This document shows, piece by piece, positions 548-56,123 of a stretch of 60,142 bases of DNA. This DNA is from Nitrospirota bacterium (lineage in GTDB: Bacteria > Nitrospirota > UBA9217). The first letter of the stretch is position 1. Each line of letters starts with the position of its first letter. The stretch spans positions 1 to 60,142 of the forward strand of contig CAVUHW010000021.1 in assembly GCA_963741205.1 (NCBI GenBank), written 5' to 3'. The notes under the pieces were generated by a model. It was not told where the DNA came from and ran no database searches. It worked only from the letters and a program-made list of their open reading frames with translations. The translations under genes were made by a program, and so were the position numbers.

Positions 548-1828
548 CGGTGAGCAGTCACACCGCGCGCCGAGCGCACGCCACCGCCTTGCGGGCGCCT
601 GGCCGTGTATGACCAGGCTGATGACCCGCTCGGCGGAGGTGTGTCATATCGCCGCGTATCGACCTTGCTGAGCACAGTGGACGTCGCGTTCGTAAAGCGA
701 CGCCGGTCCGGGGGCGGACCATGGGTGTCCGGGTGCAGCACTCGGTGGCCAGGTCGTAGGCCGAGCAGACTACTGGGAATCCCCCAACGCCGACCTCGCG
801 TTGATTCGAGCCCACGCCGTCTGGCCTGCCCTCTGATGAGGAGCAGGCTATCCGCGAACCCGCAGCTGGTGTGCGCACGACCGTGCTGTGGGCGACCCGC
901 GCCGCTTCGGGGGTCTCGAAGGTCAGTCACCGGGGGCGTCAATCATTTAGGTCTCGCGGCTGAGGCCCTGTCCAGCGCCGCGCCGAACGTCAGTGGCTAC
1001 GCAGTCGACCACCACCCGTCCCGACCCTGGGCAGAGCGGGACAGGTGACGACGGAAGGGACGGGACGCGCAAGGTACCAAAGCTCGACACCCCGTGATGC
1101 CTCACGTCAAGATGCCCGCGAAACTCAACCCGTGCCTCAGTTGGGGGTCTTGTAATTGGCCAACACGATCAGGCGGGTCTGCAGGTCGGCGATCTGCCGG
1201 GCGAGCTGGGCGGGGTTGAGGCTGTCGCGGCGGGCGGTCAGCTCGGCTGTCTGTGTGGGTGAGAGGACCCGGGCGGTGAGCAGCCGCTGCAAGGGCGTGC
1301 TCGGCTTGTCGTTGACGCGGCGGCGTCGGCCGTCGCTGGTTGAGGTCTAGCCGACCGGTTTGACCGTTGGGGTCAGGTAGTTGAGCCGGTCGTTGACCAG
1401 GGGCCAGCGCCGGTTCAGCACGCGTCGTTCGTCCTCGGTGTCGTAGCGGTAGTAGAAGCCGTACCGGTGCACCAGGTGGTTGTTCTTCGACTCGACGGTG
1501 GCCTGGTCGTTCTTCTTGTACGGCCTGGACCTGGTGAAGGAAATCCCACGGTCGCCGGCCCACCCGATGACCGCCTGGTTGAGGAACTCGGACCCGTTGT
1601 CGAAGTCGAGTCCCATTATCCCGTAAGGGATTTCGTCGGCCGCGGTGTGCAACGCGGACAGGATGTGGGTGTGCGCGTTGTTGCGGATCGTCCGGGTGAA
1701 CACCCACCCGGTGTGCACGTCGGTCAGGTTCAGGGTGCGGGCGAACTCACCCTTGAGGGTGGGGCCGCAGTGCGCGACAGTGTCGCCTTCGAAGAACCCC
1801 GGCTCGGCCTCGACCTCATCACCGGCCT

Positions 1829-2938
1829 TAGGGCTCTCCACTTAACCGGAGTAGACTTGGACCGTGGTTGCGCTCCGAGGCGGGCAAGACTATCCACGGT
1901 CGGTGGGCGAGTTCCTGTCGTGGTTCGGCACGGACGCGGACTGCCGGGACTACTTGGCGTGGTTGCGCTGGCCGGACGGTTTCGTCTGCGATGAGTGCGG
2001 GCACGTCGACGGTTGGCGGCTGGCGGACGGCCGGTGGGAATGCGCCGGGTGCTCGCGCCGCACGTCGGTGACCGCGGGCACGATCTTCGACCGAACGCGC
2101 ACGCCGTTGACGGTGTGGTTCCACGCGTGCTGGTCGTTCGCTACCGCCAAGGACGGTATCTCCGCGCTGGGCCTGCAGCGCACACTTCAGATCGGGTCCT
2201 ACCAGACCGCGTGGGCGATGTTGCACCGGCTGCGTTCGGTGCTGCTCCGGCCCGGTCGAGAACTGCTGTCCGGGCAGGTGGAGGTTGACGAGACCTACAT
2301 CGGCGGTGAGGAGGCCGGGCTGGCCGGTGGTCGGGCCAAGGGCAAGAAGGCGCTCGTCGCCGTTGCTGTGGAAGTCAAGCCTCCCACGGGTTTCGGGCGG
2401 TGCCGGATGCGCGTCATCCCGGATGGCTCCGCCAGCGTGCTGCACACGTTCATCACCGACAACGTCGCCCCAGGGTCCACGGTGATCACCGACGGATGGT
2501 CCGGTTACCTGGGCATCGACAAGGTCGGCTACACCCATGATCGGCGCAGCCAGCGCGCCGCCAAGGCGCTGGGCGAGGACATCGGCAAGCTGCTGCCCGG
2601 CGTGCACCGCGTAGCGTCGCTGGCCAAACGGTGGCTGCTTTCCACCCACCAAGGCGCGGTGGACATCGAGCACCTGCCCGGCTACCTGAACGAGTTCTGC
2701 TTCCGGTTCAACCGTCGCCGTTCACGCAGCCGCGGCCTGGTCTTCCTGCGACTACTCCAACTCGCCGTCGGTCACGACCCGGTCCGCTACCGGCAGCTGA
2801 TCAAACGACACCAGCCACGCAAGGCGCCGCCACGGCCGCCCGGAGCGACCGGGCACCCGCCCAGCATCGACCGGCCCCGCGCTACCCGCCCCTGGCGACG
2901 GCATGACCAGCACGACTCCGGTTAAGTGGAGAGCCCTA
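1829..2938 (+). mobile_element. IS1595-family insertion sequence, complete
   Basis: Perfect 24-bp TIR TAGGGCTCTCCACTTAACCGGAGT (1829-1852 / 2915-2938); 8-bp TSD ACCGGCCT (1821-1828, 2939-2946). Confidence 0.95.
1864..2925 (+). CDS. IS1595-family transposase
   Basis: Zn ribbon (LRWPDGFVC..CG, C..C...SVTAGTIF), catalytic VEVDETY, TDGW..Y, YLNEFCFRFNRR. Confidence 0.93.
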   Translation: MVALRGGQDYPRSVGEFLSWFGTDADCRDYLAWLRWPDGFVCDECGHVDGWRLADGRWECAGCSRRTSVTAGTIFDRTRTPLTVWFHACWSFATAKDGISALGLQRTLQIGSYQTAWAMLHRLRSVLLRPGRELLSGQVEVDETYIGGEEAGLAGGRAKGKKALVAVAVEVKPPTGFGRCRMRVIPDGSASVLHTFITDNVAPGSTVITDGWSGYLGIDKVGYTHDRRSQRAAKALGEDIGKLLPGVHRVASLAKRWLLSTHQGAVDIEHLPGYLNEFCFRFNRRRSRSRGLVFLRLLQLAVGHDPVRYRQLIKRHQPRKAPPRPPGATGHPPSIDRPRATRPWRRHDQHDSG

Positions 2939-3744
2939 ACCGGCCTTACGGATCGTGATGCTCGAGCGAAGCAGCGGCGACGGTTTCGTCGTGGACACCC
3001 CGCCGATCTGGTCCTTCGCCCTCGCGCGCGCCAGGTACCGGTCGATCGTCGCCGCCGACATGGCCAGCAGCTCGGCCCGCACCTGCTGGATGTACCGGTC
3101 CTGGCCGGGCACCAGCTCGCCGTGCCGCTCCAGCCCGTCCAGCTGGGTGCGCATCGACGCGACCAGGTACTTGCCGCCACTGGCCACCCGAGGCGGCCCA
3201 CACCCGCTGCAACACCTTCCGCGCGTCGTACGATTACCTTGGCGACCGAGGCCTACTGACCCGTGACGCCACCGTCCGACCGCGGCCCGGGGGCTGCGCG
3301 GCAGGTGCGACCAGCCTTCGCCGGGCGTTGTCCCGCGACCAGCCCGTCACCGAGACCACCTCATCCAGCACCCGACCCTCGTCCTTCTTGGCCGCCTTCA
3401 CGTACCCCCGCGTACCTGGTCGTGATCTCCCCACGAGACGTCATCGACAACCCACTCCTCATGCCTCACGACGCTCCCCGTTACGCGGGCATTTGTGAGG
3501 CACGGGGCGTGTTTCGCGGGCAGTCCTCGTGAGTCAAGCCGCACCCTTCACGGGCGGGTGTCGCCGCGGCTACGGTGAGTGTCACGTCAGCGTTCCCAGC
3601 TGCTGTCGTCCGACCCCCGGAGGTTGCCACCTCGCGGGGGTCTTACCTCTTCGCGACCGGCTGCGCTTATGCCCTACATATGCCCACGGGTGTGAGCAAA
3701 GGAGGGCCGTGATCGCGTTTCCGCAGGTCAGAGCCCAGGATTAG

Positions 3745-3821
<77 letters not shown>

Positions 3822-3949
3822 TCGCTGCGGACGCCCGACGCGGACAGCCGGGCGCGGCAGCAAGGAGTCACACTAGCCGACCGGCAGGAACCGGCTCCAA
3901 TCGACCATCGGCCCGACCCGAAAACCCGCACGCCAGCCGTGGGCCCTGG

Positions 3950-4480
3950 TCAGCTGGCCCGCGCTGTCAGGGTCAGCAGCGTCGCCTCAGGCCGGCAGGC
4001 GAAGCGGACTGGGGCCATCGGCGAGGTGCCCAGCCCCGCTGAGACTTCCAGGTATGCCGCGCCCGCCGGCTCCGGCGCGCGGCGCGGCGCTGTGCCTGCT
4101 CCGGGCCACCAGCGCGAGACACCCTTAGCCCGGCTGCGGTCGAGGTCGCAGTTAGTCACCAGGGCTCCGAGCAAGGGCACGCACAGCTGCCCGCCATGCG
4201 TGTGGCCGGCGATGAGCAGACCGGCGCCGTCGGACGTCATCGCGTCGAGCGTGCGCTGGTAGGGCGCATGGGTGACGCCGATGGTCAGAGCGGCCGACCG
4301 GTCCGCCAGTCCGGCTACCAGCTGATACCGGTCGTAGCTCAGATGCGGGTCGTCCACGCCGACGAACTCCAGCGGTAAACCAGCCACGTCCAGGCGCGCT
4401 CGCACATTGTTGAGATCCGTCCAGCCGCCTGACTCTAGCGCGGTGACCAGCCGTTCCGTCGGCAGGGGCGCTCCCTCAGC
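3950..4480 (-). CDS. Metallophosphoesterase, 3' part only (cut at the junction)
   Basis: GVDDPH, GVTHAPY, AGHTHGGQLCVP, VTNCDL, SAGLGTSP..PVRFACRPEATLLTL; typical actinobacterial gene beside tRNA-Pro. Confidence 0.85.
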   Translation of the reverse strand, partial: AEGAPLPTERLVTALESGGWTDLNNVRARLDVAGLPLEFVGVDDPHLSYDRYQLVAGLADRSAALTIGVTHAPYQRTLDAMTSDGAGLLIAGHTHGGQLCVPLLGALVTNCDLDRSRAKGVSRWWPGAGTAPRRAPEPAGAAYLEVSAGLGTSPMAPVRFACRPEATLLTLTARAS

Positions 4481-4620
4481 GAAGTCCAACCCCCAGCAGT
4501 TCATCGACCAGCATACCGACTGGCGCTTCATCAATGAACTGAAAAAGGAATTCGGAATACACGTGGTAGGGATCTGCGATACCATCCTTGATCCGATCGC
4601 ATGCGGGGTGTCGGACATGA
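4481..4620 (+). CDS. C-terminal fragment of a NitT/TauT-type substrate-binding protein (5' part missing; end approximate)
   Basis: KSNPQQFIDQHTDWRFINELKKE resembles the TDWRFLNELK C-terminus of this family. Confidence 0.55.
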
Positions 4621-6194
4621 AGGATTGGCTTCCCCGGCTTGTGGCGAGAGCGCCGTTTACGGTCCATACCAAACTGATCGGCGCCTTCTTTGCCATCGCG
4701 GCGCTGCTGATCATATTCGGCGTCGTTGTCATTCAGGTCCTCGAGCGGCATGAACCGCCGTTCCGAGGACCTCAGCCAGCTCCGGCGCAAAGTCGCCGCG
4801 TTCCGTCAGCTGCAGCACGATACCACCGCCCAGCTCTACAGCGTTACGTCAGCGCTGCTGTCGCCGGAGGAGCGGATGCTTGAAAGCGCCCTCCGTCAGC
4901 TGAACCAGTTCAGGTACGACCTTGACCGGCTTCAGTTCGTAACGCGGGACGAGGTGGAGCTTTTCAAAAAAATCAGCGAAGAGCATGAGCAATTGATCCA
5001 GTTGATAACGAGCTGTTCTGGAACTTACCCGGGAACAGGCATTCACCAGGGCAAAGGAGCTCCGGCTTACCAGGATGGCCCCGTTGGCCGACAGCCTCGA
5101 GCGGCTTACCAATGAGATGGTGAACAGGGCCGAGGCTGATATGGAGGCAAAGATGGACGAGAGCAACCGGGCATACCTGACATCCCGCTGGGTGGTCATC
5201 GGATTTGCCGCCGGGAGCATCGGACTGGCGATCCTGCTCGGCTACGCGGTCTCTTCATCGCTGATGGGGCCGGTCATGCTCATGGACATCGCAGCTCAGG
5301 CAGATCGCATCAGGGGATTTCTCGAAGCGCGTTGAGGTGCCGAACCGGGACGAGCTCGGGACCCTGGCGAACAACCTGAACCGCATGAACAATGAGCTCA
5401 GGAGCCTCTATCAGCAGATCGAGGCCGCGAGCCGCCACAAGTCCGATTTTCTGGCCAGCATGAGCCATGAGCTGCGCACGCCCCTGAACGCCATCATCGG
5501 GTACAGCGAGATGCTGACCGAGGAGGCTGAGGACCGTGAATCAGAAGGACCTTGTCCCTGACCTCCAGAAGATCCGGGCATCGGGCAAGCATCTGCTGGC
5601 GCTCATCAACGACATCCTCGACCTTTCCAAGATCGAGGCGGGAAAGATCGAGCTCTCCCCCGAGACCTTTGACATCGCCGCCCTGATCGAGGAAGTGGCG
5701 AGCATGGTCCAGCCGCTGATCGAAAAGAATGCGAATGTCCTCACGATCAACCGCCCTGACGATCTGGGCTCCATGTACGCTGACATCACGAAGGTCCGGC
5801 AGATCCTGTTCAATCTGCTGAGCAATGCCTGCAAGTTCACGGAGCTTGGGACGATCACGCTGGACGTCGATCCGGGAGAAGTCTGAGGGCTCCGAACGGC
5901 TTTCCCTCAGCGTACGCGACACGGGCATCGGCATGACCGGGGAGCAGATGGCAAAGTTGTTCCAGCCGTTCTCGCAGGCGGATGTGCAGACTGCTCGAGA
6001 AATACGGGGGCACCGGGCTGGGTCTGGCGATCACGAGGCAGTTCTGCGAGATGATGGGCGGGGAGATCAAGGTCGCGAGCGAGTACGGCAGAGGCACAAT
6101 ATTTACCGTGAAGCTTCCTCTCTCAGCATCGAACTGGCAACAGCAGATGCGATGTCGTCGGCCGAGAACAGGCGATCCGTCAAAATCCGCGTAA
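4617..6194 (+). CDS. Membrane sensor histidine kinase (HAMP-HisKA-HATPase), several frameshifts
   Basis: Two TM helices, HAMP ([10 protein letters not shown]), H-box [27 protein letters not shown]-box [22 protein letters not shown]. Confidence 0.88.
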
Positions 6195-41677: not shown

Positions 41678-43214
41678 CCGAATTGACTCACAATAAATGT
41701 TACCCAACCGCATTTTGAAAAGTATCGTTGACTCATAATGCATGTTACCGGAACTATACCCCTAAAAGGAGGGTTAGTTCTGATGAGTCCACGATCCAAA
41801 CGGGAGTACCTGGCTGCAATCGTAAAACGGTACCGGGCCGCCTCCCGGAAGATGAAAACAGCGATCCTGAACGAGTTCTGTTCAACCTGCGGGTATCACC
41901 GAAAGCATGCCCTCAGGCTTCTGCGGACCTTCCGGCGATTTACCCAAAAGAATCCGGCAAAACGAGGCAGAAAGCCGGTGTATGACACGGAGACGCTCCT
42001 CGTACCCTTAAAGCGTATCTGGATGACGGCAAATCTGCCGTGCTCAAAGCGCCTGAAGGCCATCATCCCTGAGTGGCTGCCAGGATATATTAAATCCTAT
42101 GGCCCCATCTCGCAGGAGACGGCAGTGGCCTTGCTCAGAATATCTCCATCGAGCATCGACAGGATACTAAACCCGATCCGCGCAGAGTATACCAAGCACG
42201 GCAGGGCCACAACCAAGCCGGGAACGCTCTTAAGAAGGCATATCCCGGTGAAAACCAACCAATGGGATGAATCCCGGCCGGGCTTCCTGGAGGCTGATAC
42301 CGTAGCCCACTGCGGAAGCACTACAGAAGGCATGTACGCCAATACCGTCGACTGCGTGGACATCGCCACCGGCTGGACGGAGCAGCGCGCTGTCTGGGGC
42401 AAAAACTATCAGGATGTCATCGACCAGATCAAGGATATCGAACAATCCCTGCCGTTCCCGATCCTGGGCTTTGACGCGGACAACGGCAGTGAGTTCTTAA
42501 ACCATCACCTGCTTCGCTATCTGACCGAGAGGAAACGGCCGATTCAGTTCACCCGAAGCCGGGCCTATAAAAAAGACGATAATGCTCATATCGAGCAGAA
42601 AAACTGGACCCATGTGAGACAATGGCTTGGCTACGATCGCCTGGACTCTCCGGAGGTTGTTCCTCTCATGAACGAGCTTTATACCACCGAGTGGAGGCTG
42701 TTTCTGAACTTCTTCTGTCCTTCGGTGAAGCTGCTGGAAAAGAAACGGGTTGCTTCAAAGATCGTGAAACGCTATGATAAGCCCAAAACTCCTTACCGGA
42801 GAATCTTGGAGTCTCCCGATGTCTCCGATGAAACAAAGCGCAAACTCAAAGAACAATATAAAACCTAAACCCTTTTGAGCTGAGAAAAGCCTTGGAGGTT
42901 AAGCTTAAAAAGATCTTCAAACCGTAAACCCAAACCCTGCGTCCACGCTATTGCACCAAGACGGAGCGGACAGATTGCTTAAAAGAGGCTGCTTGAGAGG
43001 GATGGTTAGGTATGGCCCAGCCTCAGAAAACTCAAACACGGCCATCCTACGAAGCCTATTTTTTAAGCTGCGATGCCTTACATCCCCAAATCTCAAAAAT
43101 GCCTAGACTAGAGGAGAGCAACTATAGTTGAGAGTCACTCAGACAAATTTCAATTAAAAAACTCGACAAAGCCCATAATGATCTTCCGGTAACATTTTAT
43201 TATGAAGCAACTGG
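41678..43214 (+). mobile_element. IS1604-like (ISNCY) insertion sequence with 12-bp TSD
   Basis: TSD GGCAATCGAAGG (41666-41677, 43215-43226); ends CCGAATTGACTCACAATAAATGTTACC vs reverse complement CCAGTTGCTTCATAATAAAATGTTACC; extra internal TIR copy at 41728. Confidence 0.88.
41783..42927 (+). CDS. Integrase-core DDE transposase (probable frameshift at ~42866)
   Basis: PGFLEADTVAHCG, DIATGW, DADNGSEF, FTRSRAYKKDDNAHIEQKN, YDKPKTPY.R. Confidence 0.92.
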
Positions 43215-43363: not shown

Positions 43364-43389
43364 AAAAAAGGGCCTGCGTGAGCAGGCCC
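43364..43389 (-). terminator. Intrinsic terminator after the repeat cytochrome gene
   Basis: GGGCCTGC-TCAC-GCAGGCCC followed by a T run on the minus strand. Confidence 0.8.
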
Positions 43390-43435
43390 CTTGGATGGTT
43401 GAAGACGTTCTAAGTCAGTACTTCCTCGCTACAAC

Positions 43436-45399
43436 CTACCAGGTCCGCGTGCCGTGGCACCCGGGAGAGCAGGAGCGCGTAGTCGCGTTGAAATTCAAGG
43501 TGCTTACGACGTCTTTCACGCCGTTCTTGTGCGTCGTCGCAGTCACGGCAGTTGAACTGTAGCCCGTGCCGTGGCATCTGCTGCAATCGTACCCTTGCGA
43601 GTTCACGTGGAAATCGTGCTGGCCTGTCGCCGGCGGGATGGCGTGGCAGGAGCCGCATGCGGGCGTCGGCGAGGTGCAGGCCTGTGACAGGATCGACGCT
43701 GCTGCGGGCGTCCCTACGCAATTGGCGGGGGACAGTGATGTCACCGTTCTGGTCTGCAGGTTGTTCGTGCATGTGCCCCATGCGGAGTAGTTGTAGGTGG
43801 TGCAGGCCGACCGGCGAGGTGCAGGCCTGTGACAGGATCGACGCTGTTGCGGGCGTCCCTACGCAATTGGCGGGGGACAGTGATGTCACCGTTCTGGTCT
43901 GCAGGTTGTTCGTGCATGTGCCCCACGCGGAGTAGTTGTAGGTGGTACAGGCCACCGGCGAGGTGCAGGCCTGTGACAGGATCGACGCTGCTGCGGGCGT
44001 CCCTACGCAATTGGCGGGGGACAGTGATGTCACAGTTCTGGTCTGCAGGTTGTTCGTGCATGTGCCCCACGCGGAGTAGTTGTAGGTGGTGCAGGCTACC
44101 GGCGAGGTGCAGGCCTGTGACAGGATCGACGCTGCTGCGGGCGTCCCTACGCAATTGGCGGGGGACAGTGATGTCACAGTTCTGGTCTGCAGGTTGTTCG
44201 TGCATGTGCCCCACGCGGAGTAGTTGTAGGTGGTACAGGCTAGCGGCGAGGTGCAGGCCTGTGACAGGATCGACGCTGCTGCGGGCGTCCCTACGCAATT
44301 GGCGGGGGACAGTGATGTCACAGTTCTGGTCTGCAGGTTGTTCGTGCATGTGCCCCACGCGGAGTAGTTGTAGCCGGTGCAGGCCGCCGGCGGCGGTGTG
44401 CAGTTCTGTGTCAGGACCGGCGTGCCAGTGCAGCCTGCGGGCGATGACGATACAAGGCCCCTGACCTGCGTTCCGTTTGACAGACATGCGCCCCATGCAC
44501 CATAGGTGTAGTTGCAGGCCACTGGAGTTGGCGGAATAGGTGCAGGGTTGCGACAGGACCGGCGTCCCTGTGCAGCCTGCAGGAGACGAGGTCAGCATGT
44601 TCCTGGTCTGCGTTCCGTCTGACTGGCATGCGCTCCACGCGTCATAGGTGTAGGCGCAGGCAGTGGATCCCCCCGGTCCGGCAGGCATGTTTTCTGCGTA
44701 GAAGGTACCCGAGGCGAGATCTCTGAGCGATCCTGAAAAGATAACGTCGCCGGTCTGCCTGTTCGTAACGGTTACCCTTCGGTCTTTCACGACAAACCGC
44801 ACGTCTTGGAACATTGCACGAAGTCCGCTGTTATCATTCTCATCATCGTCATCGGTGACAGCGTTGCCCGAAATCTGGTACAGCTCAAACAGAGGCGCCA
44901 GCACGGTGCGCAGGCGGGAGATGATCACTTCAAAATGGTCCGCGGTTCTGTGGTGTTCATCTTCACTTTCACTGGACCTTATGATCGAGAGTACGCTCGG
45001 ACCTGTATTATCCGCTGACGCGGCTACTGCCGTGTCCGAAATCGGGTTGATGTTGGCCCGGCCGCCGTTTTTCGAAACAGAATACAGCGTCTGTCCATTT
45101 CCAGCCTGGTCAGCCCCTTCGGCCTTGAGCAAGAAAGGCGGCTTGAGCCCGCTCACGTCAACAGTGTAATTTCCATTGCTGTTGACGGCTGCCGTCTTTT
45201 CCTGCGCCGGCACGGAAGAATCAATCATGGAAACAGTGCCGTTATCCATCATGTCCAGTGATGCGACACCGGACACTGTTGCTTTAGATGCATGAGACGC
45301 GGCCGATGAGTCTGACGAACCGGGCGAACTGCAACCGGCAACCACGAAACCGATCATCGCTGCACATACCATGAGAAGGGTGAGAATGTTTTTCTTCAT
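43436..45399 (-). CDS. Lipoprotein with TSP1-like Cys/Trp repeats and a C-terminal triheme cytochrome c domain (two frameshifts)
   Basis: Lipobox VVAG-C; beta-sandwich-like N-domain; seven W..C....QTR....C.G.....Q.C repeats; CGSCH, CSRCH, CSPGCH. Confidence 0.82.
43668..44388 (-). repeat. Five near-identical 144-bp coding tandem repeats (plus two diverged units to ~44660)
   Basis: Unit starts at 43668, 43813, 43957, 44101, 44245; 48-aa unit ACTTYNYSAWGTCTNNLQTRTVTSLSPANCVGTPAAASILSQACTSPV. Confidence 0.95.
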
Positions 45400-45715
45400 T
45401 ATTCGAATCTCCTTTTTGAAATTGGTCCGGCTTGTCCTTCGGGCATGGGTGCTACTGCTTTCTTGATGTACTGCTCTGCAATTTTGCTCTTTCTTTACAG
45501 GATGCACTGTCAAAATACAATGTCCGTGAACCGTTCGTGATGGTGTTTTTGTGAAACCGGGTTGCCCGTGCTTCTACGCCACCGGCGGGAGTCGGGGGCT
45601 TTTTCTAACTGAGCAACCATCCCGCATTGTGTGCCATGGTCGGCGTCACCTCCTTAGTTACTTTATTCCGCAAGGGCATTCGAAAACAAAAAAGCCGGGC
45701 GCCTGAATATCGAAA

Positions 45716-45799
45716 GATATTTCGGCAGCCCGGCTGTCTCAGAGAGACCCGTAGGTTTTCCGCCCCACCCTCGCGGATGGTTTAGTATTGTCGTCTATC
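45716..45799 (-). ncRNA. GEMM-I (c-di-GMP-I class, A20/cGAMP-type) riboswitch, downstream copy; terminator ~45687-45735
   Basis: GACGACAATACTAAACCATCCGCGAGGGTGGGGCGGAAAACCTACGGGTCTCTCTGAGACAGCCGGGCTGCCGAAAT closely follows the Geobacter GEMM-Ib pattern. Confidence 0.9.
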
Positions 45800-45886
45800 A
45801 GCTGGTATGTATCTCGAGCTGAAAAAGGCGTGTGTGTACTGCGCGAGAATCACAGAAATAAAAAGCCGGGCGCCTGAATATCGAAA

Positions 45887-45970
45887 GATATTTCGGCAGC
45901 CCGGCTATCTCATGGAGACCCGTAGGTTTTCCGCCCCACCCTCGCGGATGGTTTAGTATTGTCGTCTATC
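45887..45970 (-). ncRNA. GEMM-I (A20/cGAMP-type) riboswitch, upstream copy; terminator ~45858-45906
   Basis: Near-identical to the other copy at 171-bp offset; differences lie in the distal hairpin (TCTCCATGAGAT). Confidence 0.9.
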
Positions 45971-46028
45971 AGCTGGTATGTATCTCGAGCTGAAAAAGGC
46001 GCGTTGCTATGTGTTTACTATAAAAACA

Positions 46029-46061
46029 GAAAAGTCGGCGCCCTGCCTTGCGGCAGGGCGC
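46029..46061 (-). terminator. Intrinsic terminator after the PgcA-like gene
   Basis: GCGCCCTGCC-GCAA-GGCAGGGCGC followed by a T-rich tract. Confidence 0.7.
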
Positions 46062-46083
46062 TCCGTATATCCTTACTTCTTAC

Positions 46084-48843
46084 TTACCATCTATGCGTGC
46101 CGTGGCACGAGTTCGAGCAGGAGCGCGTGGTCGGATTCCAGCCCGGTGTGCTCCCGCTCGCGATGTTTACCACACCATTGTTATGCGTCGCCACGTTATT
46201 AGAGGTCGAGCTGTAGCCCGCGCCGTGGCATACGCTGCACGAACGCGACGCGTGGGTCGAGTGATGGCCGGATGCCGGCGGAATGGCGTGGCAGGAACCG
46301 CACATCGGTGTCGATGTGACGGCGTCGGTGTCGTCGTCGATGATGTTGAATTTCCCAACGCAGTCGAAATGGCCTGGATCTGCGCAGACGTGAGCGTAGA
46401 AAGCGACATCATCCCGCTGATCGTGTTGATGCCGGTCTGTATCTGGGCAACCGTTGCCCCTCTGTAGGCCGCTCGAGGCAAGCGCTCCATGGCACGGCTG
46501 CAGTAGTGGCGTAGAGCGCCGCGCCGTCGATCGCTCCCGACGTTGTTGTGCCGTCGGTGCAGGCGTCGTCGTTGCGATGTCGTGCTTCCTCCCCAGCTCT
46601 GCGTGCCGTGGCACGAGTTCGAGCAGGAGCGCGTGGTCGGGTTCCAGCCCGGGGCTCCGCTCGCGATGTTTACCACGCCGTTGTTGTGTGTTGCCGTATT
46701 CACGGTAGTCTTGCTGTAGCCCGTACCGTGGCAGGTGCCGCACGACACCCTTGCGAGTTCACATGATACGTGTGATGGCCGGTCGCCGGCGGGATGGCGT
46801 GGCAGGAACCGCACGTCGGTGTAGGCGCAACATTGGTGTAGGTTTGAGAAGGACCGGCGTTGCTCCGGTGCAGCTGCGTAAGATGCCGTCGCTATAGGCC
46901 TGGATCTGCGTGCTGTTGACTGGCAAGCTCCTCAGGCAGAATACATGAACGAGATCCAGGCTTGACCGGCTGGACTTAGGGGCAGGTCTGCGACAGACCG
47001 GCGTTCCTCCGGTGAAGCCGCCGGTGCCGATGACGCCATATCTGGACTACGTGCCGTAGATGCGCTGCCCCCGCGGTCGGCGCAGGAGTTGCCGTAATTG
47101 CCAGGGCAGCAGCGATGGCCTGGACTTGCGTTGCCGTAAGGTTCGACAGAGAATTCATGCCACCTACTTGCTTCCAATGGCGGTCTGGATCTGGGTGGCT
47201 GTTCTTCCAGCTTTGGCGCTTGCGGCCAGTGCTGCATGACACGAACTGCAGTTAGGTGGTATAAAGCGCGGCCCCGTCAGTCGGCGCGGGCGTCGGCGTC
47301 GGTGTGACGGGACAGGGGTCCCGGTGCAGTCGGCGGAGACGCATGAGGCGATGGCCTGGATCTGCGTCTGTCAGACGAAAGATCTCGACAGTGAATAGCT
47401 CATGGCGCAGGCTGTCGACGATGCCCGTACTGGATCGGAAGCTTTGGACCCCGATTGGTGCTGCTCGCCAATGCAGCCGTGACAGGAGACTGCAATGCCG
47501 CTAGAGTGTCTGGCTCCGTGCGGTCAGATTGGCGTGGGGTCGGTGTCGGCGTAGGTGACGGAGGTGCGGGTAGGGCCGCGCCGGTGTCGTCCTAAGGCGG
47601 TAGCGATGGCCTGAATCTGCGTTGTCGAAAGATTCGAAAGTGAACTCATGGCGCCGACGCTGCCGATGCCCGTCTGGATCGTGGAAGCTGTTGCACCCCG
47701 CTTGGTGCTGTTCGCCAATGCGCCGTGGCACGAACTGCAGTTAGGCCGCATAGAGCGACGCCCCGTCAGTTGGCGTGGGTGTCGGTGTAGGTGTAGGAGC
47801 CGGCGTTGACCCTAATGCCGTCGCAATGGCCTGAATCTGCGTTGGAGTGAGATTCGTGAATTGTCCCATGCCGCCGTAGTTTCTGGAAATACCGTTCTGT
47901 ATCTGAGACACTGTTGCTCCCGACTTGCCGCTCGTGGCAAGCGGACCGTGACATGAATTGCAGTTGGCCGCATAGAGCGCAGCCCCGTCGTTATGTCGTG
48001 GGACGCAGGCGTCGGTGTCGGCGAAGGCGTAGGAGTCTGCGCAGGCGCTGATCCCAATGCTGTTGCTATGGCCTGAATTTGAGCAATCGTAAGGGTGGAG
48101 AGAGACCCCATGGCGGGTTCACACTGCCGATGCCGGACAGGATCCTGGGCGGCAGTCCTTCCCTTCTTGCTGCTCGTGGCAAGCGGCGCCGTGGCATGAA
48201 CTGCAGTACGTCGCGTAAAGCGAAGCGCCGTCTGTCAGTGTTGGAGTAGGGAGTGGGTGTTGGTGCAGGCACTGCTGCTAACGCATCCGCAATGGCCTGA
48301 AGCTGGGCTGTCGTAAGGTTCGAGAACCGACTCATTCCGCCTTTGTTGTTTGCAATGGCGGCCTGGATAGCGGATGCCATTGCGCCGGCCTTGCCGCTTG
48401 CGGCAAGCGGACCGTGGCACGAAGCGCAGTTGTCCGAATAGAGCGCGGCCCCGTCGAGCGAGGCTGTTGAGAGGTGGGAGTATTATTGCGTTCGTCGTGG
48501 TGGGGTTTGTCGTCCCTACCGCCGTCAAGGCGGACACAATTGCCTGGAGTTGATCGGCGGTGAGGCTCCTATAGGCCCCCATGCCGCCCATGTTGTGTGC
48601 AATCGCGTTTTGGATCTGGGATATTGATGCCCCTTTCTTGCCGCTCGTGGCAAGGGAGCCATGACATCCGCTGCAATCGCTGCTATAGAGCGCGGCCCCA
48701 TCGATCGTTCCCGAGGCTGTCGTGTTCGACGATTTGCCGCTGCTGCATCCAAAAAGCGCGAAGGCCAGAATTACCGCACCAATCACAATCAGGTTGATCA
48801 CAAATAGGTTGACATTCTCCGTCTTCATTGTATCCGTCTTCAT
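46084..48843 (-). CDS. Expanded PgcA-like multiheme cytochrome c lipoprotein with PT linkers (many indels)
   Basis: Lipobox LFG-C; repeated DGAALY...CxxCHG.LA.S.K.GA....IQ..I....GGM....LT..QIQAIA.AL domains joined by PTPTPT; two triheme domains (CGSCH, CxxCH, CSNSCH). Confidence 0.82.
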
Positions 48844-48909
48844 AGTATTGTCCTTCCTTAAATCCTAAAATGATGTCCTTGTTCTGTGCGCCTCTGCTGT
48901 GCATTTATT

Positions 48910-48924
48910 GCAACTCAAATGCCA
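48910..48924 (-). promoter_or_regulatory. Sigma54 -24/-12 promoter
   Basis: TGGCATTTGAGTTGC on the minus strand, 66 bp upstream of the start codon, with an AT-rich tract behind it. Confidence 0.85.
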
Positions 48925-49012
48925 GAATAAGTATATAAGTTTTATCTTACTGATATATAAACGTATTTTATTAATTAAGGGTGTTTATTTTCGTCTGAGA
49001 AAACAGTCGTGC

Positions 49013-49112
49013 TGTATGGATTTTTATACAGCGATAACCTATGGCATTATGCAACATCTGATAAAATTTTCAATAAATCAGTATGTTAAAATTCTGTCCA
49101 CAATTCCATACA
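49013..49112. promoter_or_regulatory. Two putative GlrR-type enhancer boxes
   Basis: TGTA-N10-TACA (49013-49030) and TGTC-N10-TACA (49095-49112); E. coli GlrR consensus is TGTC-N10-GACA. Confidence 0.6.
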
Positions 49113-49221
49113 AAATGGTGATAAGCCCGTTAGTTTTCACCAACCCATGTGCACCATGCCTTCAGTTTTTCACAGCAATTCAACTAATGCGAACGAAATA
49201 AATAATGTTACATCCCGGCAA

Positions 49222-49275
49222 GCCCCCCCCCTCACCCAACCCTCTCACCTCTGGGGAGAGGACAAAGAAGAGGGG
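49222..49275. repeat. REP-like palindromic element
   Basis: CCCCTCACCCAACCCTCTCACCTCTGGGGAGAGG...GAGGGG. Confidence 0.5.
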
Positions 49276-49609
49276 CAAAGCAGGAACGAATCTGAATGCG
49301 TTTGTATTAGGCTGGCCTTATATCTCTTTGCACTTGCGGACACCGCGAGAACTTCGATCCCCTTCCCCGGGATTCACGGAGCATAATCTAACTCATGAAA
49401 TTACTGAGCAGGGCAATAAGGAAAGGCAGGCAATCGAGTTGAAGACAGACATGTTTTTTTAAAGCGATCAATTAGGTGAAGCCAAAGCAAAAAAATGGTA
49501 TAGTAAGGATACTTTGCAAGCTCAGGTGAAGAAGCATCCTTCGCAGTGGTTGAAAAACGGCGAACATGAAGCGGTCTGTTCTTGACCGGAATCTGAAAAG
49601 GCTAAAAGC

Positions 49610-51047
49610 GTGAGATTTAGCATCCTTTCAAGGTTGATCCTGGGATACGTTTTCCTTCTGGCCCTGGCAGCGGCAATGAGTTACCGCTTCATCGTGCAGC
49701 TCGGCAACGTGACCGATGTCACCCATTCCATCATCCTGGTGGACAATTCCCTCATCAGCCTTCAGAAAGACATGACGGACGAGCTTCTGTCCGAAACGAG
49801 GTATGAAAAAAAGTATCTCATTGTGCGGGACCGGGAGCTCTATAAGGGGTTTCTGAAATCCAGGACGGAGTTCGAACACAATCTCAGCCAGGCGCTCACG
49901 CTCGGCGTCAGTCCCGCGGTGCGGGATGCCTTGAACAGGGCGGCGGACTTCCACCTGACCTATAACTCGCTCTTCAAGGAAGAGGCGGAATACCACAGGG
50001 CAGGCTGCGCTACGACCGCACGTGGTACACGAAAGAAAAGGAGCGTGCGGTGAATGCCGCGATGGAGGAACTGGTCAAGGTCCGGACCATGAGCCAGCAG
50101 AGCATTCTCGACAAGGTGAAGAAGCTGAGCGAGGCAGGCAGGCGGGCGCGGACCACCGCCATGGTGGTGAGCGCCGTGTCCCTGCTGTTCGGGATCGCTC
50201 TGGCCGTGCTGATCACCAGGAGCATTACGCGTCCCCTCTCGGAAATGCAGAAAAAGACGAAGGACATCGCCGACGGCGTCTTTGAGGCGGATTTGAGGGT
50301 GCCCTCTTCGCCGGAAATCGGGGCACTGGCCCAGGCATTCAACACCATGTGCAGCAAACTGAAGGAAGTGGACAGGATGAAGTCCGATTTCTTCGCGCTC
50401 ATGTCCCACGAGCTGCGCACGCCGCTCACCTCCATCAAGGAGGGGACCAACCTCTTCCTGGAAGGGATGCTGCGGCGAGGTCACGGAAAAGCAGAAAAAG
50501 GTGCTCCTGATCATCGCCGAGGAAAGCAACCGGCTCATCGGGCTGGTCAATTCCGTTCTGGACCTGGCGAAGCTCGAATCGGGACTGCTGGCGTTCAACT
50601 TCGGCAAGGCCGACCTGTCTCCGCTCATCGCGAGGGTCGTGGAGGAAGTGGGGCCGCTGGCAGAAGCGAAACACATCAAGATCAGCAGGGAGGTGCGGGA
50701 CCTGCCGCCGCTGACCATGGACGCCGAGAGGATGCTCCAGGTCCTGCGGAACCTGATCGGAAATGCCTTGAAATTCACTCCTCGCGGAGGAACGGTGAGC
50801 ATTACCGCCCGGCGGGAAAAGGATGCCGTCATCGTTGCGGTCATCGACACGGGACCGGGCATTCCCAAGGAACATGCAACCGCGATCTTCGACAAGTTCC
50901 GGCAGGTCCCCGGCGCCGGCAGGCACCACGGGAACCGGGCTGGGGCTGGCGATCGTCAAGCACATCATTCAAGCGCATGGAGGCTCGGTATGGGTAGAAA
51001 GCGAAGTGGGAAACGGCAGCACTTTTACGTTACAGTTGCCTGCCTGA
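49610..51047 (+). CDS. GlrK/QseE-like sensor histidine kinase (frameshifted)
   Basis: Two TM helices, [51 protein letters not shown]. Confidence 0.88.
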
Positions 51048-51487
51048 TCCTGTCGATCGCAGCGGGCTGTGCGCCGGTCCGGACACGGGCCCCGGAGGTC
51101 CGGAGTGCCCGGAGTGCCCGGAGCCCGTGTGCCGGAATGCCCGGAGTGTCCTCAGAGCGACTCACCTGATGCGCGTGGAGAGTCTGCTCAGCAAAGGGCA
51201 ATTTCGAGGGCGCGATGAAGGAGAGCCAGGACATCCTTGCCCGCTCGCCGAAAACACCGCCGGGAGATGAAGCGCTCATGGACATGGGGCTGATCAGCGC
51301 CCACTACGCAAATCCGAAGAAGGATTACAAAAAGGCGTTGAGTTACTTCATGCGCATTGAGAGGGAATTTCCCCGAAGTCCCCTGGTGGAAGAGGCAAAG
51401 ATATGGGTCGGCGTGCTGCAGGCCTTTGAGAAGGCGAAGCAGGTGGACCTCGAGATCGAGGAAATGAAGAAAGGGCTCGGAAAGTAG
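50990..51487 (+). CDS. QseG/YfhG-like TPR lipoprotein (frameshifted)
   Basis: Lipobox AAG-C; ALM.MGLI.AH..NP.KDY.KA..YF...FP.SP; ends [10 protein letters not shown]; lies between kinase and regulator. Confidence 0.65.
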
Positions 51488-51489
51488 CG

Positions 51490-52857
51490 ATGGAGAAGGC
51501 GGCGGCAAAACTGTTGATCGTTGATGATGACCGGAACCTCCTGGAGCTGATGAAGATGCGGCTCGAATCGTCCGGTTATGCGGTCACCACGGCGCCGGAC
51601 GAAGACGAGGCAAAAGCCGCCGTGGTGGCGCAGGCCTTTGACCTGGCCATTCTCGACCTTCAGCTCGTGCGCCAGGACGGGATATCGCTCATGGAGGAAC
51701 TGCGCCGCGTGGCGCCCGACATGCCGGCCATCATCCTCACGGCCCACGGCAGCATCGAGAGCGCCGTGGATGCGATGAAACGCGGCGCCTTCACCTATCT
51801 CACGAAACCCTTCGATGCCCGCGAGCTGATCCTGCACGTGGAACGCGCCCTGGAGAACAGGAAGCTGGCCTCGGAGGTCGACCGGTTGCAGGGGCTGCTC
51901 TCGGAGCGGTACGATTTCAAGAACATCGTCGCGCGAAGCGGGGCCATGCAGGCGGTGCTCGAGACCGTGTCCCGGGTCGCAAAAACGGATTCCACGGTCT
52001 TCGTCCGGGGGGAAAGCGGCACGGGCAAGGAGCTCATCGCGCGGGCGATCCACCTTGCGAGCAACAGGAGCGACAAGCCCTTCGTGGCCATCAACTGCGC
52101 CGCCCTTCCCGAAACGCTCCTGGAGAGCGAACTCTTCGGCCATGAGAAGGGCTCCTTCACCGGGGCGGTGAGGACCTCCAAGGGCCTCTTTGTCCAGGCC
52201 CATGAGGGGACCATATTTCTCGACGAGATCGGCGACATGCCGCTCTCCATCCAGGCCAAGTTCCTCCGCGTGCTCCAGGAGCGCCAGTTTTACCCTGTGG
52301 GCAGCGAGCAGACCGGTGGACGTGGATGTGCGGGTCATCGTTGCCACGAACAAGAACATCGAAGAACTGGTCAAACAGGGCCAGTTCCGGGAGGACCTCT
52401 ATTACCGGATCCACGTCATTCCCGTCGAACTGCCGCCTCTTCGGGAACGCAGGGATGACATTCCCGTTCTGGTTGACGCATTCCTGAAAAAATTCTCCGA
52501 ACAGATGACAAAAAGATAAAAGGCCTGACGCCTGCCGCCATGCAGCGGCTGATGCTCCATGACTGGCCCGGTAACGTGCGCGAACTCGAGAACACGATCG
52601 AGTATGCCGCGGCCATGGCCGAACAGGACGTCATCGGCGAGGAGCTGATCCCTCTCGAAAAATGCGCCGTGGAAGAAGCGATCAAACCGCTCAAAGAGGC
52701 CCGGGAGAACTTCGAGAAAAGATATCTCATCAGGCTCCTTGAACTCACCCGGGGGAACGTAAGCAGCGCAGCGGCCCTTGCCGGGAGGTACCGGGCAGAT
52801 CTGTACAATCTCCTGAAGAAATACGTCATCAACCCCTCGGACTTTAAAAAAGAATAA
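51490..52857 (+). CDS. GlrR/QseF-like sigma54 response regulator (frameshifted)
   Basis: [72 protein letters not shown]. Confidence 0.9.
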
Positions 52858-53116
52858 GCAGCAGGTCGTTAAAAACCTTTTTCGCAGGCAGTAGCCGCAC
52901 CCTATGGAGAGCGAATTATGGGTTTTTTCAACAGCCTGTTAGACTCTTTCCTTCACGCTATTGTCCGCCGCCTTATTCCTGAATAACATTGCATATCACC
53001 TTTGTTACTAATCCAGACTGAGTTTCGACGACTGACCAACAATCCCCGGTACGGAAATGATATACTTATTTTCTGACCACATAATGTCCTGGTTATCTCA
53101 AAATGAGGAGGGGACT

Positions 53117-56100
53117 ATGGAAAAAAAAATTTTCGTAATTCGGCCCGTTCCTGTTCTGTCAGGCTTGCGGTTTGCGCTGGCCGCTCTTGCCGTGATCGGC
53201 GCGCTTCTTTCAATCGGCTGCCAGACGGCGGGACACCAGCATCTGTCCGACCCGGACTTTAAATGTGTGGCTCTCGCCCCGGTCTTGCCTGAGGCCCCCT
53301 TTGACCTCAGGTTTTTCTCAACTGCTGTAAAGACTGATTCAAAGGGGCAGGTCATTACCGGCCCGACAGCCGACCCGGTGAAAGACATCGTTGGCGCCGA
53401 GGCCGCAGGGGTGCGCGCGGGCATGCCGCGGTTCACCAAGATCATGTTCGGGGCCGGCTACTTCGACGGCGCGCCGGGCATTGGCGACCGCATCGATCCG
53501 AATAATCCGGTCGTGAAAGCCGGCGGAGAACACTGGCCTCATGTGCCGCAGCCGTTCAGAAGCCAGCCGAACTCGCTGGCGCTTACCGCCGACGGCGCGA
53601 AACTCTACGTTACGCTCCCCGGCAAGGAAGGCTATCCCGACTGGAGGGTCGCGGTGATGAACACCGCGACACGTCAGGTCAAGTGGATCGATCTCCGGCT
53701 GCCGGGAAAAACGGGAGGGCTTCGTCCGATGGGCATTACGATCTCGCCGGAGAATCCCGCCATTTCAGCGTCGCCCTACGTCGTTGTCCTGAACCAATAC
53801 GCGAATTTCGCAACCGTGGTCGACACAAAGACCGACAACCTGATCGGCCAATTCAAGCTCGGCTTTTATGCGGAAAAGGCGAGATTCAATAAGATCCGGC
53901 ACCCGCTTGTATACAACCGACCGGGTAAGAAAAACCGTGCGCGCCTTCCGCATCGACCCGGGACCGAAGTTCACGCAGATCGCTGAAGTTCCGACGGGCA
54001 CGAAAGATCTGGAGCGCTCGCATCCGCGCGATCTGGACCTATCTTCTGACGGAAATACCCTCTACGTGGCGAACACCCTAGGCCACACCATCGCCGTCAT
54101 CAACGTGGCCGGTGATGCGAATACGCTCGTCAAGGTGATGCCCGTGGGCGGCCTGGCAACGGACGTTAAGATCGCCGGAAAATGGGGCTTTGTCTCGGGT
54201 CAGGAGACCAACACTGTATTGAACCAGCGGGAGACCGGGCACGGTATGCCGAAGCTCATGGACGGGATCGCCATCCGCAACAACGGCCAGCCCCTGGGCT
54301 ACACGCCCGTGATGACTGACGCGACGCAGGCCACGACTTTCGACGATCTCGGCAGCGAACTAAACGTGTTCGATGCTGCGACCAATATGTTCGTTTTCCG
54401 CTATGTCGATTTCGAACGCGACCGGTCCATGATTACCGTGCCGGGGCAGGTCTTCGATCTTCATGACCACACAGCAGGCCAGAAGATCATCCAGGGAAGC
54501 GGTCCCGAGCAGATGTTCGTACGGGGCGACTTCCTCTTCGTCACCCACATGCACTCGGACAAGGTCGAAGTCTTCCGCATCAACCAGAATCCAGTCACGC
54601 TCGACGGGATCCTCACGGAAACTGACTTCGAGTTCACCGGCGGCGTCACGCCTCAGGGAGTCGTCGTATCGCCCGACGGCAAGACCGTGTACGTCACCAA
54701 CATGCAGACCGAGGACGTATCAATTCTTTCGGTCGATGAGATCGGCAAGCTTACGCGCCAGGGTTTTGTGACCGTAGGTGTGACCGATAAGACACCTGAC
54801 CCCACCAAGGCCGGCAACGGTTCAGGGCTCTTTGCCACTGCGGAAGAAAAAGGACTGCGCTGGTTCTTCACCCAGTCCTATTCCGACGACGGACACAAAT
54901 CCTGCGCTTTCTGCCATTGGCAGAGCAGGCAGGACGGAAACCAGTGGAACGTCGGCGGAAATGCCGTAGGCGGACCGAAGGTGGCCCCCCAGAACAAGGA
55001 TGTCTCGGACAACTGGCCGCAGTGGTTCGAGGGGCTCTCCAACGATATGGTAGGCTACGCATCCTCGTGCAACGGCGAGATCATCCTTGCTGAGCGAAAG
55101 ACGGCGCTCTTCCCGCAGGATACGCTCCAGGAGCGCCTCCTGGCCCGCGATGCCTTTGTCAGGCAGAAAACCGCGGAGAATTCGGTCGCCATCGGAAGAC
55201 CCGAACTTCAGGGAGACGCCTTCTCCACCGGGTACTATGAAATGGCGTTTGCCCAGATCCTCTGGACCCAGAATGAGACCCGGCGCTTTCCAAACCCCCT
55301 TTCGCAGTTTCCAGAGGCAGCCGATGCCGCGAAGATCGAGCGGGGCAGGCAGCTCTTTACGCTCGAAGTGGACCAGGGCGGAAGCGGATGCGCCAGCTGC
55401 CACCATAACGGCAACAAGATTACGAACGGCGAGGTGGATAACACTTTCCAGGACTTCAACCTCCATGAACCCGGGGTCATAGCCGAAACCACGGTTGACG
55501 GAGACGGGGTCTTTGTGCGTCTCGGAAACAACTATATCTTTGAAAAATTCGGTCCGCCGCAGGACCTCGGTGCGCGCCAGAACATAAGCAGCCGGAACAC
55601 GAAACATTTGCGCTCGTTCTGGGACAGCGTGCCGCGCTGGCTTCACCACGGCGCCGCGCACTCCATCCGCGAGATCATCCTGCCGCCCGATTCCCCGTTC
55701 CTGCAGCCGGGTGAGCGGGGGTTCAACTTCCGCACCGTGCGTGCTGACCACAAGCGGCGGGTTGCGAACAGCTTCCTGGGAGGTCCTCCTATCGTGCTTC
55801 CGACCGAGGTCCCGATCACGGTCGCGGACTCCAGCGGCAGTTTGGCCGGCGACGGCAACGGCCCGATCTTCGTGAGCCTGGATCCGCCTACGCCTGTTTC
55901 CGGTCCGAGCGCGGCCTACCCCGAGGGCAGGCTCTTAGTGGACCAGTTGGGAACATCGAACCTGGCCCCGCTCGTCGTAGTTGACACGGCAGGAAACAGA
56001 ACGATCAATCCGGAGCTTCAAGCCAAGGGAATCACCGTCATTCGCGACACACATGGCAAGACGAGCCAGCTTTCGGCGGACGATATCGAGGCGCTCTCGA

Positions 56101-56123
56101 TGTACCTGCGGTCGCTGCAATAG
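53117..56123 (+). CDS. Lipoprotein: YncE/YVTN beta-propeller fused to a diheme cytochrome c peroxidase-like domain (frameshift ~53895)
   Basis: Lipobox LSIG-C; propeller repeats (DG.KLYV, SPDGKTVYVTN); CAFCH, CASCH, WLHHGAAHSI, HGKTSQLS..D.EAL..YLRSL. Confidence 0.82.

Follow-up and report, generated by a model that had tools for sequence, protein, structure and literature searches.

Does an uncultured member of the Nitrospirota build its surface cytochromes from the same protein parts, and control them by the same class of RNA, as Geobacter does for extracellular electron transfer (EET)? The question is raised by a locus on contig C21 of a metagenome-assembled genome (MAG), here G000 (4.27 Mb, 50 contigs, ~84% complete by estimate); this contig is the window, i.e. 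the whole stretch of 60,142 nucleotides (nt) analysed. Two lipoprotein genes with haem motifs, A and B, lie in the same orientation with two GEMM-I riboswitches between them, and a divergent trio of genes encodes a sensor kinase, a small lipoprotein and a sigma-54 activator. The locus is probably an EET cytochrome module of an uncultured Nitrospirota bacterium, made from parts of the Geobacter cytochrome PgcA and placed under two levels of control. To our knowledge, control of mineral-respiring cytochromes by riboswitches for 3',3'-cyclic GMP-AMP (cGAMP) has been worked out experimentally in Geobacter only, and literature searches found no paper on this Nitrospirota case.

Two lipoproteins made from PgcA parts

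The cytochrome genes and their terminators are as follows.

46084-48843, minus strand: gene A, ~919 codons, from a three-frame reading over at least 12 frame changes
46038-46061, minus strand: intrinsic terminator after gene A, 10-bp stem with 9 GC pairs and a T-rich tail
43436-45399, minus strand: gene B, ~654 amino acids (aa), from a three-frame reading with frame changes near 44540-44600 and 43810-43860
43367-43392, minus strand: intrinsic terminator after gene B, 11-bp stem with 7 GC pairs and a T-run

A preliminary description of the locus had named two co-oriented multihaem lipoprotein genes, one of them PgcA-like. Both genes do encode haem-bearing lipoproteins related to PgcA, judging from their lipoboxes, haem motifs and matches to the PgcA structures 9I0D, 8QJ6 and 8QJG, with only three haem motifs in gene B. 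Gene B starts with a lipoprotein signal (lipobox VAGC, read from the sequence), followed by a 200-residue N-domain that matched the non-haem domain of PgcA both in sequence (PDB entry 9I0D_A, E 4.1e-28) and, as a structural model with a mean predicted local distance difference test (pLDDT) score of 74.4, in fold (Foldseek against 9i0d, E 2.5e-16, template modelling scores 0.66/0.83). This domain closes with ENM-PAGPGG, which is kept as NxP in 10/10 aligned homologues and falls, in the alignment, where the crystallised PgcA domain ends. PgcA is cleaved there, between Met252 and Pro253 (PMC11520253), and by analogy the product of gene B may be processed at the same site. The N-domain is followed by a Cys-rich stalk of 48-residue repeats (144-nt period, 5.0 copies, 97% identity), for which a PTN_MK_C match of 28.9 bits is the sole hint at a thrombospondin-like nature. 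The C-terminus is a trihaem module (CGSCH, CSRCH and CSPGCH, thus two CxxCH and one CxxxCH motifs), and gene B encodes no monohaem c-type domain. An intact orthologue of 652 aa (P0002) is 66% identical over residues 1-281. An AlphaFold model of one Cys repeat with the trihaem module was set aside (pLDDT 48.6, 5 sequences, no haem), and an NCBIfam scan gave no equivalog for gene B, the kinase, the small lipoprotein or the regulator.

Gene A lacks the PgcA N-domain, and its first haem domain begins ~20 residues after the lipobox (LFGC, again read from the sequence). It encodes what we call a haem string, i.e. ~8 monohaem domains of the PgcA type on Thr/Pro-rich linkers, one Cys-rich repeat and two trihaem modules, with ~14 haem motifs altogether. 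The string matched Cytochrome_CBB3 (9e-08), and its first haem domain matched PgcA domain I (8QJ6_A, 5.5e-17) and domain II (8QJG_A, 4.7e-12). The exact form of PgcA, with three monohaem domains and (PT)x linkers, is found in neither gene (~8 such domains in A, 0 in B). Intact relatives of the cytochromes are P0001, P0002 and P0044, of which P0001, from a genome of the same genus (G007), unites in one protein of 757 aa the N-domain with 7 monohaem domains and a trihaem module. It is gene B that matches pgcA, by N-domain and by riboswitch, and with the same wiring; the preliminary description had given the PgcA-like part to gene A and had called the locus differently wired. It had also named OmcS beside PgcA as a Geobacter cytochrome for Fe(III)-oxide reduction; no OmcS family or structure was among the Pfam, NCBIfam and PDB hits of A or B, with no direct comparison made.

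An intact gene A paralogue is present on contig C32. There (G000:C32:6106-11797) a boxed sigma-54 promoter precedes an intact haem string of 847 aa, with 10 monohaem domains and a trihaem module, followed by a terminator, an A-type riboswitch, a gene for a 446-aa secreted protein and two genes for small cytochromes (5 and 6 haem motifs). Together these genes may form a porin-cytochrome conduit; the label "porin" for the 446-aa protein found no support, as it has no Pfam match.

The bead-plus-trihaem architecture is widespread, with 403 of 7,999 scored candidates at E <= 0.001 and hosts that include Geotalea, Citrifermentans, Pelotalea, Geothermobacter, Desulfobulbaceae, Sideroxydans, Candidatus Methanoperedens and Nitrospirota. 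That haem-string homologues occur in metal reducers and likewise in Sideroxydans and Candidatus Methanoperedens would suit a role in electron uptake, by oxidation of Fe(II)/Mn(II) or at a cathode, or in cell-to-cell transfer rather than in mineral reduction, and sequence fixes no direction of electron flow. We nevertheless consider such a role rather unlikely, as the closest characterised relative, PgcA, is an Fe(III)/Mn(IV)-oxide reductase (PMC10570954, PMC11520253) and the Geobacter regulon of A20 riboswitches, the type described below, serves Fe(III) oxide reduction (PMC6456294).

Tandem GEMM-I riboswitches ahead of gene B

Between the two cytochrome genes we found the tandem riboswitches that had been proposed, as two matches to RF01051 (c-di-GMP-I), both above the gathering score of 35.

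45892-45967, minus strand: GEMM-I aptamer 1, RF01051 45.9 bits, A at the position equivalent to Vc2 G20
45858-45906, minus strand: terminator of riboswitch 1, predicted fold
45721-45796, minus strand: GEMM-I aptamer 2, RF01051 46.1 bits, A at model position 11 (equivalent to Vc2 G20)
45686-45735, minus strand: terminator serving as the expression platform of riboswitch 2; the 3' strand of the second aptamer helix supplies its 5' arm

Both aptamers sit in a 171-nt unit present in 1.8 copies with 97% identity, which suggests a recent duplication. A hairpin and U-run lie on the 3' side of each aptamer (-29.1 and -28.6 kcal/mol, z -6.3 and -5.5). In the predicted minimum-energy fold without ligand, both riboswitches form the terminator with the 3' strand of the aptamer. 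Because this default terminator takes its 5' arm from the 3' strand of the second aptamer helix, each riboswitch is predicted to be an ON switch, like the GEMM-Ib riboswitches of Geobacter (PMC6456294).

Among the relatives, a GEMM-I aptamer precedes the gene B homologue in 7/7 loci (in one locus there are two), and all 8 of these aptamers are A-type and have terminators. An RF01051 scan of G000 gave 13 hits, 8 A-type and 5 G-type, and DNA similarity added two A-type fragments. Cytochrome or EET genes lie downstream of A-type aptamers in 5/6 loci and of G-type aptamers in 0/5. GEMM-I was found in 63/64 genomes of the family, with up to 27 copies per genome. A second tandem A-type pair (G000:C36:26791-29481) lies before a gene for a 758-aa protein with an InlB B-repeat/Ig-like part and an MtrC/MtrF-like multihaem domain (7 haem motifs).

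The ligand and its possible source

Position 11 of the RF01051 model, where both aptamers have A, we take to be Vc2 G20 by the numbering of Vc2. This A20 is the mark of GEMM-Ib, and gene B thus lies behind riboswitches of the kind with which Geobacter senses cGAMP, as had been proposed. Changing A to G at position 20 turns Gmet_0970 from cGAMP to cyclic di-GMP (c-di-GMP) sensing (PMC6456294). From these features 3',3'-cGAMP is most likely the ligand here as well, although sequence alone cannot separate it from c-di-GMP.

The riboswitches could instead sense c-di-GMP, or both dinucleotides, which would place the locus under c-di-GMP control of the ordinary kind. The G20A mutant of Vc2 and some natural A20 aptamers (e.g. 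Cbe 1-2) are bispecific and bind both ligands (PMC6140456), so that A20 alone does not establish cGAMP selectivity. The enzymes encoded in G000 also lend weight to this alternative. Its GGDEF active-site stretches (n=18) comprise 15 with Asp and 3 with Ser at the position of GacA S348. Two of these three Ser-type proteins, on C15 (131638-132840) and C28 (101305-102474), are GAF-GGEEF proteins; the best PDB match of the C15 protein is GacA (6D9M, 4.5e-32), with the Ser aligned, and the combination of Ser with GGEEF leaves GacA mutants inactive and, as Hallberg et al. 2019 reported (PMC6456294), does not occur in natural enzymes. In addition, no SMODS-type cyclase was found in this 84%-complete genome. 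We still regard c-di-GMP control as unlikely, because the two distinct aptamer classes (5 G-type and 8 A-type of 13) have non-overlapping sets of downstream genes, which is hard to explain with one ligand, and because a Ser/GGDDF cyclase like GSU1937 is kept throughout the family.

This cyclase is the third Ser-type protein, encoded on C20 (G000:C20:100302-101748). It consists of a sensor, HAMP and a GGDDF domain with the Hypr Ser, the combination of HAMP and GGDDF with Ser being described for GSU1937 (PMC8835794), and would be a possible source of cGAMP. Proteins of its type were found in 57/64 family genomes (E <= 1e-30), and Ser together with GGDD[F/Y] in 29/30 loci read across the family. 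The search for a Hypr-type GGDEF cGAMP synthase that the preliminary description had proposed thus gave a candidate, while the REC-GGDEF architecture of GacA was not seen.

A sigma-54 promoter with two boxes, and its probable regulator

The other level of control concerns the region upstream of gene A and the divergent trio.

48909-48924, minus strand: sigma-54 promoter (-24/-12) TGGCATTTGAGTTGCA, 66 nt before the ATG of gene A
48944-48956, minus strand: ATCA(A/G)-N4-GAT element between the boxes and the promoter
49013-49030, no strand assigned: proximal upstream box TGTATAAAAATCCATACA, GCTGTAT-N8-ATACAGC, with perfect 7-nt arms
49095-49112, no strand assigned: distal upstream box TGTATGGAATTGTGGACA, with a degenerate 3' arm (TGGACA)
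49610-51047, plus strand: sensor histidine kinase with N-terminal sensor, HAMP, HisKA and HATPase_c, at least 3 frame changes
50990-51487, plus strand: small lipoprotein (lipobox LSIAAGC) overlapping the kinase end, weak YbgF/BamD-like TPR signal
51490-52857, plus strand: NtrC-type sigma-54 activator with receiver, AAA+ and HTH_8, 2 frame changes

A sigma-54 promoter with two palindromic boxes had been described here, and alignment of 17 promoters agrees with it: those of gene A, of its twin on contig C19 and of the G007 cytochrome, four promoters of riboswitch and gene B units, and ten located downstream of regulator genes. They share, in this order, CTGTATG-AATTTC-ATACAG, ATAAC...CTGATTT, TGTAnGAAAATCCATACA, AAATCAATAnGAT and TGGCATTnGAnTTGCT. 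The consensus of the boxes is TGTATG-N6-CATACA, and they lie ~95 and ~185 nt upstream. De novo repeat finding (seed 6, minimum 12 nt, distance <=40) returned an AT-rich palindrome only and neither box; we take the boxes as real because the 17 promoters align. The ATCA(A/G)-N4-GAT element forms conserved columns in the same alignment and is possibly an IHF site. The strict motif TGGCAY-N5-TTGCW occurs once in the window, at the promoter itself (TGGCATTTGAGTTGCA, TGGCAT-N5-TTGCA), and this match derives its weight from its position 66 nt before the start of gene A and from its conservation. Sigma-54 is encoded in the genome (rpoN, with a Sigma54_DBD match of 209 bits on C31).

The divergent trio proposed in the preliminary description is supported by the domains of its members, even though all three genes are frameshifted. 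Over three frame fragments the regulator matched Response_reg (1.3e-27), Sigma54_activat (2.5e-55) and HTH_8 (2.5e-05), and it carries a GSFTGA loop. Its best NCBIfam models were GlrR and AtoC, both below cut-off. Counterparts exist for all three proteins: intact kinase orthologues of 479-541 aa in relatives, orthologues of the small lipoprotein of 148-168 aa (listed in 7/15 relatives' loci and in G007), and an intact regulator of 455 aa on C19. The kinase sensor domain had close matches (E <= 1e-26) in 30/64 family genomes, and in the 15 such relatives' loci that were fetched the order of kinase, lipoprotein and regulator was kept. The sensor (window 49610-50020) is ~30% identical to that of the C20 HAMP-GGDDF cyclase, so the kinase arm and the cyclase arm may read related signals.

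A strict sigma-54 motif lies just 3' of the regulator gene in 12/15 of these loci and in G007. Because boxed promoters recur downstream of orthologous regulator genes, we infer that the boxes are tied by position to this regulator family and that gene A belongs to its regulon. Within G000, both boxes occur at 5 of 39 strict sigma-54 sites, and 4 of these 5 sites (C21, C19, C9 and C32) each stand before a haem-string gene that has a terminator and then an A-type aptamer behind it. Literature searches, which were not aimed at them, did not find the box consensus TGTATG-N6-CATACA or a regulon of haem strings, riboswitch-gated cytochromes and an operon for a membrane protein without Pfam match.

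Several observations weigh against this assignment. By itself the sigma-54 motif is not significant, with a chance expectation of 0.18 for the strict motif in the window and at least one match in 18/100 shuffles. The 3' arm of the distal box in the window is degenerate. Several regulator paralogues are encoded in the genome (C19, C30), and any of these might be the one that binds the boxes. Finally, the usual divergent neighbour of the trio is a non-cytochrome gene, and adjacency to a cytochrome gene is limited to G000.

The promoter downstream of the regulator has a conserved target of its own (e.g. L058:11488-12461 and L060:1106-2877 in relatives, and C45:79726-81106 in G000), an operon encoding two small proteins and a 288-aa membrane protein, all without Pfam matches. 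On the 3' side of the regulator in the window (53057-56123) are genes for a 309-aa lipoprotein without Pfam match and for a 751-aa beta-propeller protein (Lactonase) that has two haem motifs and weak CCP_MauG/DUF1924 signals; C19 carries the two genes as well. The spacer between gene A and the kinase (49205-49330) contains a G/C-rich element (…CCCTCTCACC…GGGGGGGG…), also on C19, on which read contigs from other organisms stack (depth 11-14, bin 49078-49398); it is probably a dispersed repeat.

One control per gene, or control in series

According to the preliminary description gene A was under the two-component system and gene B under the riboswitches. Control of gene A by the two-component system is plausible and gene B does lie behind the riboswitches, but a clean split into one control per gene is the less likely arrangement, and the two controls are probably in series. 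In 4/7 relatives' loci (L034, L037, L039 and L042) a boxed sigma-54 promoter stands directly before the riboswitch of the gene B homologue, at a distance of 37 to 150 nt, and the series of promoter and then riboswitch is, to judge from these sequences, common in the family. A scan for sigma-70-like promoters on the minus strand between the gene A terminator and aptamer 1 (46038-45967) recognised none. On the strength of this negative scan and of the boxed sigma-54 promoters that relatives have at this place, we favour serial control of gene B as the more probable arrangement.

Gene B might nevertheless be an independent unit with its own unrecognised promoter, as the preliminary description implied, so that sigma-54 would govern only A and the riboswitches only B. 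The terminator directly after gene A is strong, equivalent hairpins follow its paralogues on C19, C9 and C32, and read-through may be slight. Furthermore, L035 and L040 have a riboswitch and a gene B homologue with no strict sigma-54 motif nearby. We regard this as a serious contender, though somewhat improbable in view of the four relatives and the promoter scan just described, the gap of only ~30 nt between terminator and aptamer on C32, and the repetition of the order promoter, haem string, riboswitch and second gene on C19, C9 and C32.

Host and sequence quality

The host had been thought not to be a Geobacter, and the relatives of gene B agree: a search with its N-domain gave 12 loci, 11 of them labelled as Nitrospirota/Nitrospirae MAGs and one as Myxococcales, and two of the 12 are contigs of one same-genus and one same-family genome. 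Conservation of synteny, proposed as a check, was partial. The whole locus is kept only in the nearest relative and on the twin contig, and was not seen in ORF lists of six relatives' loci with 10-kb flanks, whereas sub-modules are conserved. The twin is C19:8331-25165, collinear with window 60142-43235, with an identity of 94.6% along 12 kb and of 78-86% in the cytochrome genes. It is a second copy of the whole locus with its right flank, either a paralogue or a co-binned strain. The homology ends at 43235, beside an IS481-like transposase (41738-42868). At the other end of the window (1-6000) the GC content is 0.62-0.69, compared with 0.48-0.61 elsewhere in it, and this part could be foreign DNA or a mis-join.

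Most genes of the locus are interrupted by 1-nt frameshifts, and the contig belongs to an error-prone MAG. Three-frame reading gave at least 12 frame changes in gene A, at least 3 in the kinase, 2 each in the regulator and gene B, and 1 in the small lipoprotein. Most of these frameshifts are most likely assembly errors, because all fragments retain haem motif and domain signature, because contigs of relatives from public runs are one base shorter at 50467, 50925 and 52312, where the frames change, and because C19 carries an unbroken regulator gene and C32 an unbroken gene for the 847-aa paralogue of gene A. Two haplotypes or paralogues as alike as the window and C19 would confuse polishing.

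Should the frameshifts be real, the window copy would be a pseudogene locus in decay, and the working copies would lie elsewhere (C19, C32). Frame changes are far more numerous in gene A, at least 12 in 2.8 kb, than in its intact C32 paralogue, the kinase and regulator genes are broken too, and the IS481-like transposase abuts the locus. Decay appears quite improbable to us, given the retained signatures, the one-base differences from relatives at the frame changes, a 94.6%-identical twin that is broken elsewhere, as expected from mixed-haplotype polishing, and the fact that valS, elsewhere in the window, is also split. Public reads gave no evidence on the expression, habitat or exact sequence of this organism, a point against the explanation favoured here: at most 9% of sampled words were present in any of 23 runs, and four public runs assembled on the window yielded only short contigs of relatives, mostly 90-95% alike, and none of its own organism.

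A model of two controls in series

In the module that we favour, the kinase, aided by the small lipoprotein, would sense an envelope or extracellular cue and phosphorylate the NtrC-type regulator. Comparative promoter anatomy suggests that the regulator would then bind the two TGTATG-N6-CATACA-type boxes and switch on the sigma-54 promoter, with gene A as the output, a lipid-anchored string of ~8 monohaem domains ending in trihaem modules. At the second level, of which the anatomy is seen and the ligand is a prediction, both GEMM-I riboswitches would terminate transcription by default. The ligand, most likely 3',3'-cGAMP, would hold the aptamer helix that the terminator needs, and transcription would continue. 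Gene B would be reached only when both riboswitches are occupied, and its product would present the non-haem (secretion/processing) domain, the Cys-repeat stalk and the trihaem tip. The arrangement would act as an AND gate in which gene B needs both signals and gene A only the first.

A wider reading, which we hold tentatively and with slightly more doubt than confidence, extends this to the whole family of Nitrospirota. Its members would have a Geobacter-like second-messenger regulon for EET, with A-type GEMM-I riboswitches fed by the Ser/GGDDF cyclase, and placed in series with a sigma-54 two-component system whose kinase has a sensor domain in common with that cyclase. PgcA parts (non-haem domain, haem beads, trihaem tip and Cys-repeat stalk) would be shuffled among cassettes of fixed layout, namely promoter, haem string, riboswitch and second gene. 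The cell would produce surface cytochromes only if two separate readings of a related outside signal coincided.

An uncultured Nitrospirota family combines this RNA class with these protein parts and a candidate Hypr-type cyclase, and joins to them a definable sigma-54 regulon with box consensus, regulator and target promoters. If our reading is right, second-messenger control of EET reaches a second phylum, and an enhancer-dependent promoter combined with tandem attenuators makes an AND gate of natural origin at the level of transcription. Electroactive Nitrospirota in sediments and aquifers could then be sought by the box motif, by A-type aptamers and by the PgcA non-haem domain.

Comparison with known systems

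The locus is of a known kind, that of PgcA-type cytochromes behind GEMM-Ib-like switches; what is new is its presence in Nitrospirota, the re-sorting of the parts, and the series with a definable sigma-54 two-component regulon. With PgcA of G. sulfurreducens (GSU1761) it shares the lipoprotein signal, the non-haem N-domain (in B) and monohaem domains on Pro/Thr linkers (in A). The parts are split here: A consists of the beads with additional trihaem modules and without the N-domain, whereas B joins the N-domain to a Cys-rich repeat stalk and a trihaem tip without monohaem domains. As in front of pgcA, an A20-type GEMM-I riboswitch, predicted to be an ON switch, precedes the gene with the N-domain, but here it is doubled, stands behind a sigma-54-driven gene and belongs to a host of the phylum Nitrospirota.

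The tandem GEMM-Ib riboswitches of GSU2885-omcAHG in G. sulfurreducens (Hallberg et al. 2019, PMC6456294) are also two complete aptamer-terminator units in series with A20, located before outer-surface cytochrome genes. They differ from the units described here, which are 97% identical to each other, lie 3' of a sigma-54-driven cytochrome gene and have a predicted ligand. The Hypr GGDEF proteins GacA (GSU1658/Gmet_1914) and GSU1937 have their likeness in the Ser at the S348 position, and the C20 protein combines HAMP with GGDDF as described for GSU1937. Unlike in GacA, the REC-GGDEF architecture was not seen, GGEEF is joined to GAF in the C15 and C28 proteins, and cyclase activity here is putative. 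Lastly, the regulator resembles activators of the NtrC family in its receiver, AAA+ and HTH_8 domains, in the GG-N10-GC promoter and in the two dyad boxes ~95 and ~185 nt upstream; it is set apart from them by the gene for a small TPR-like lipoprotein between kinase and regulator, and by having no NCBIfam equivalog at cut-off.

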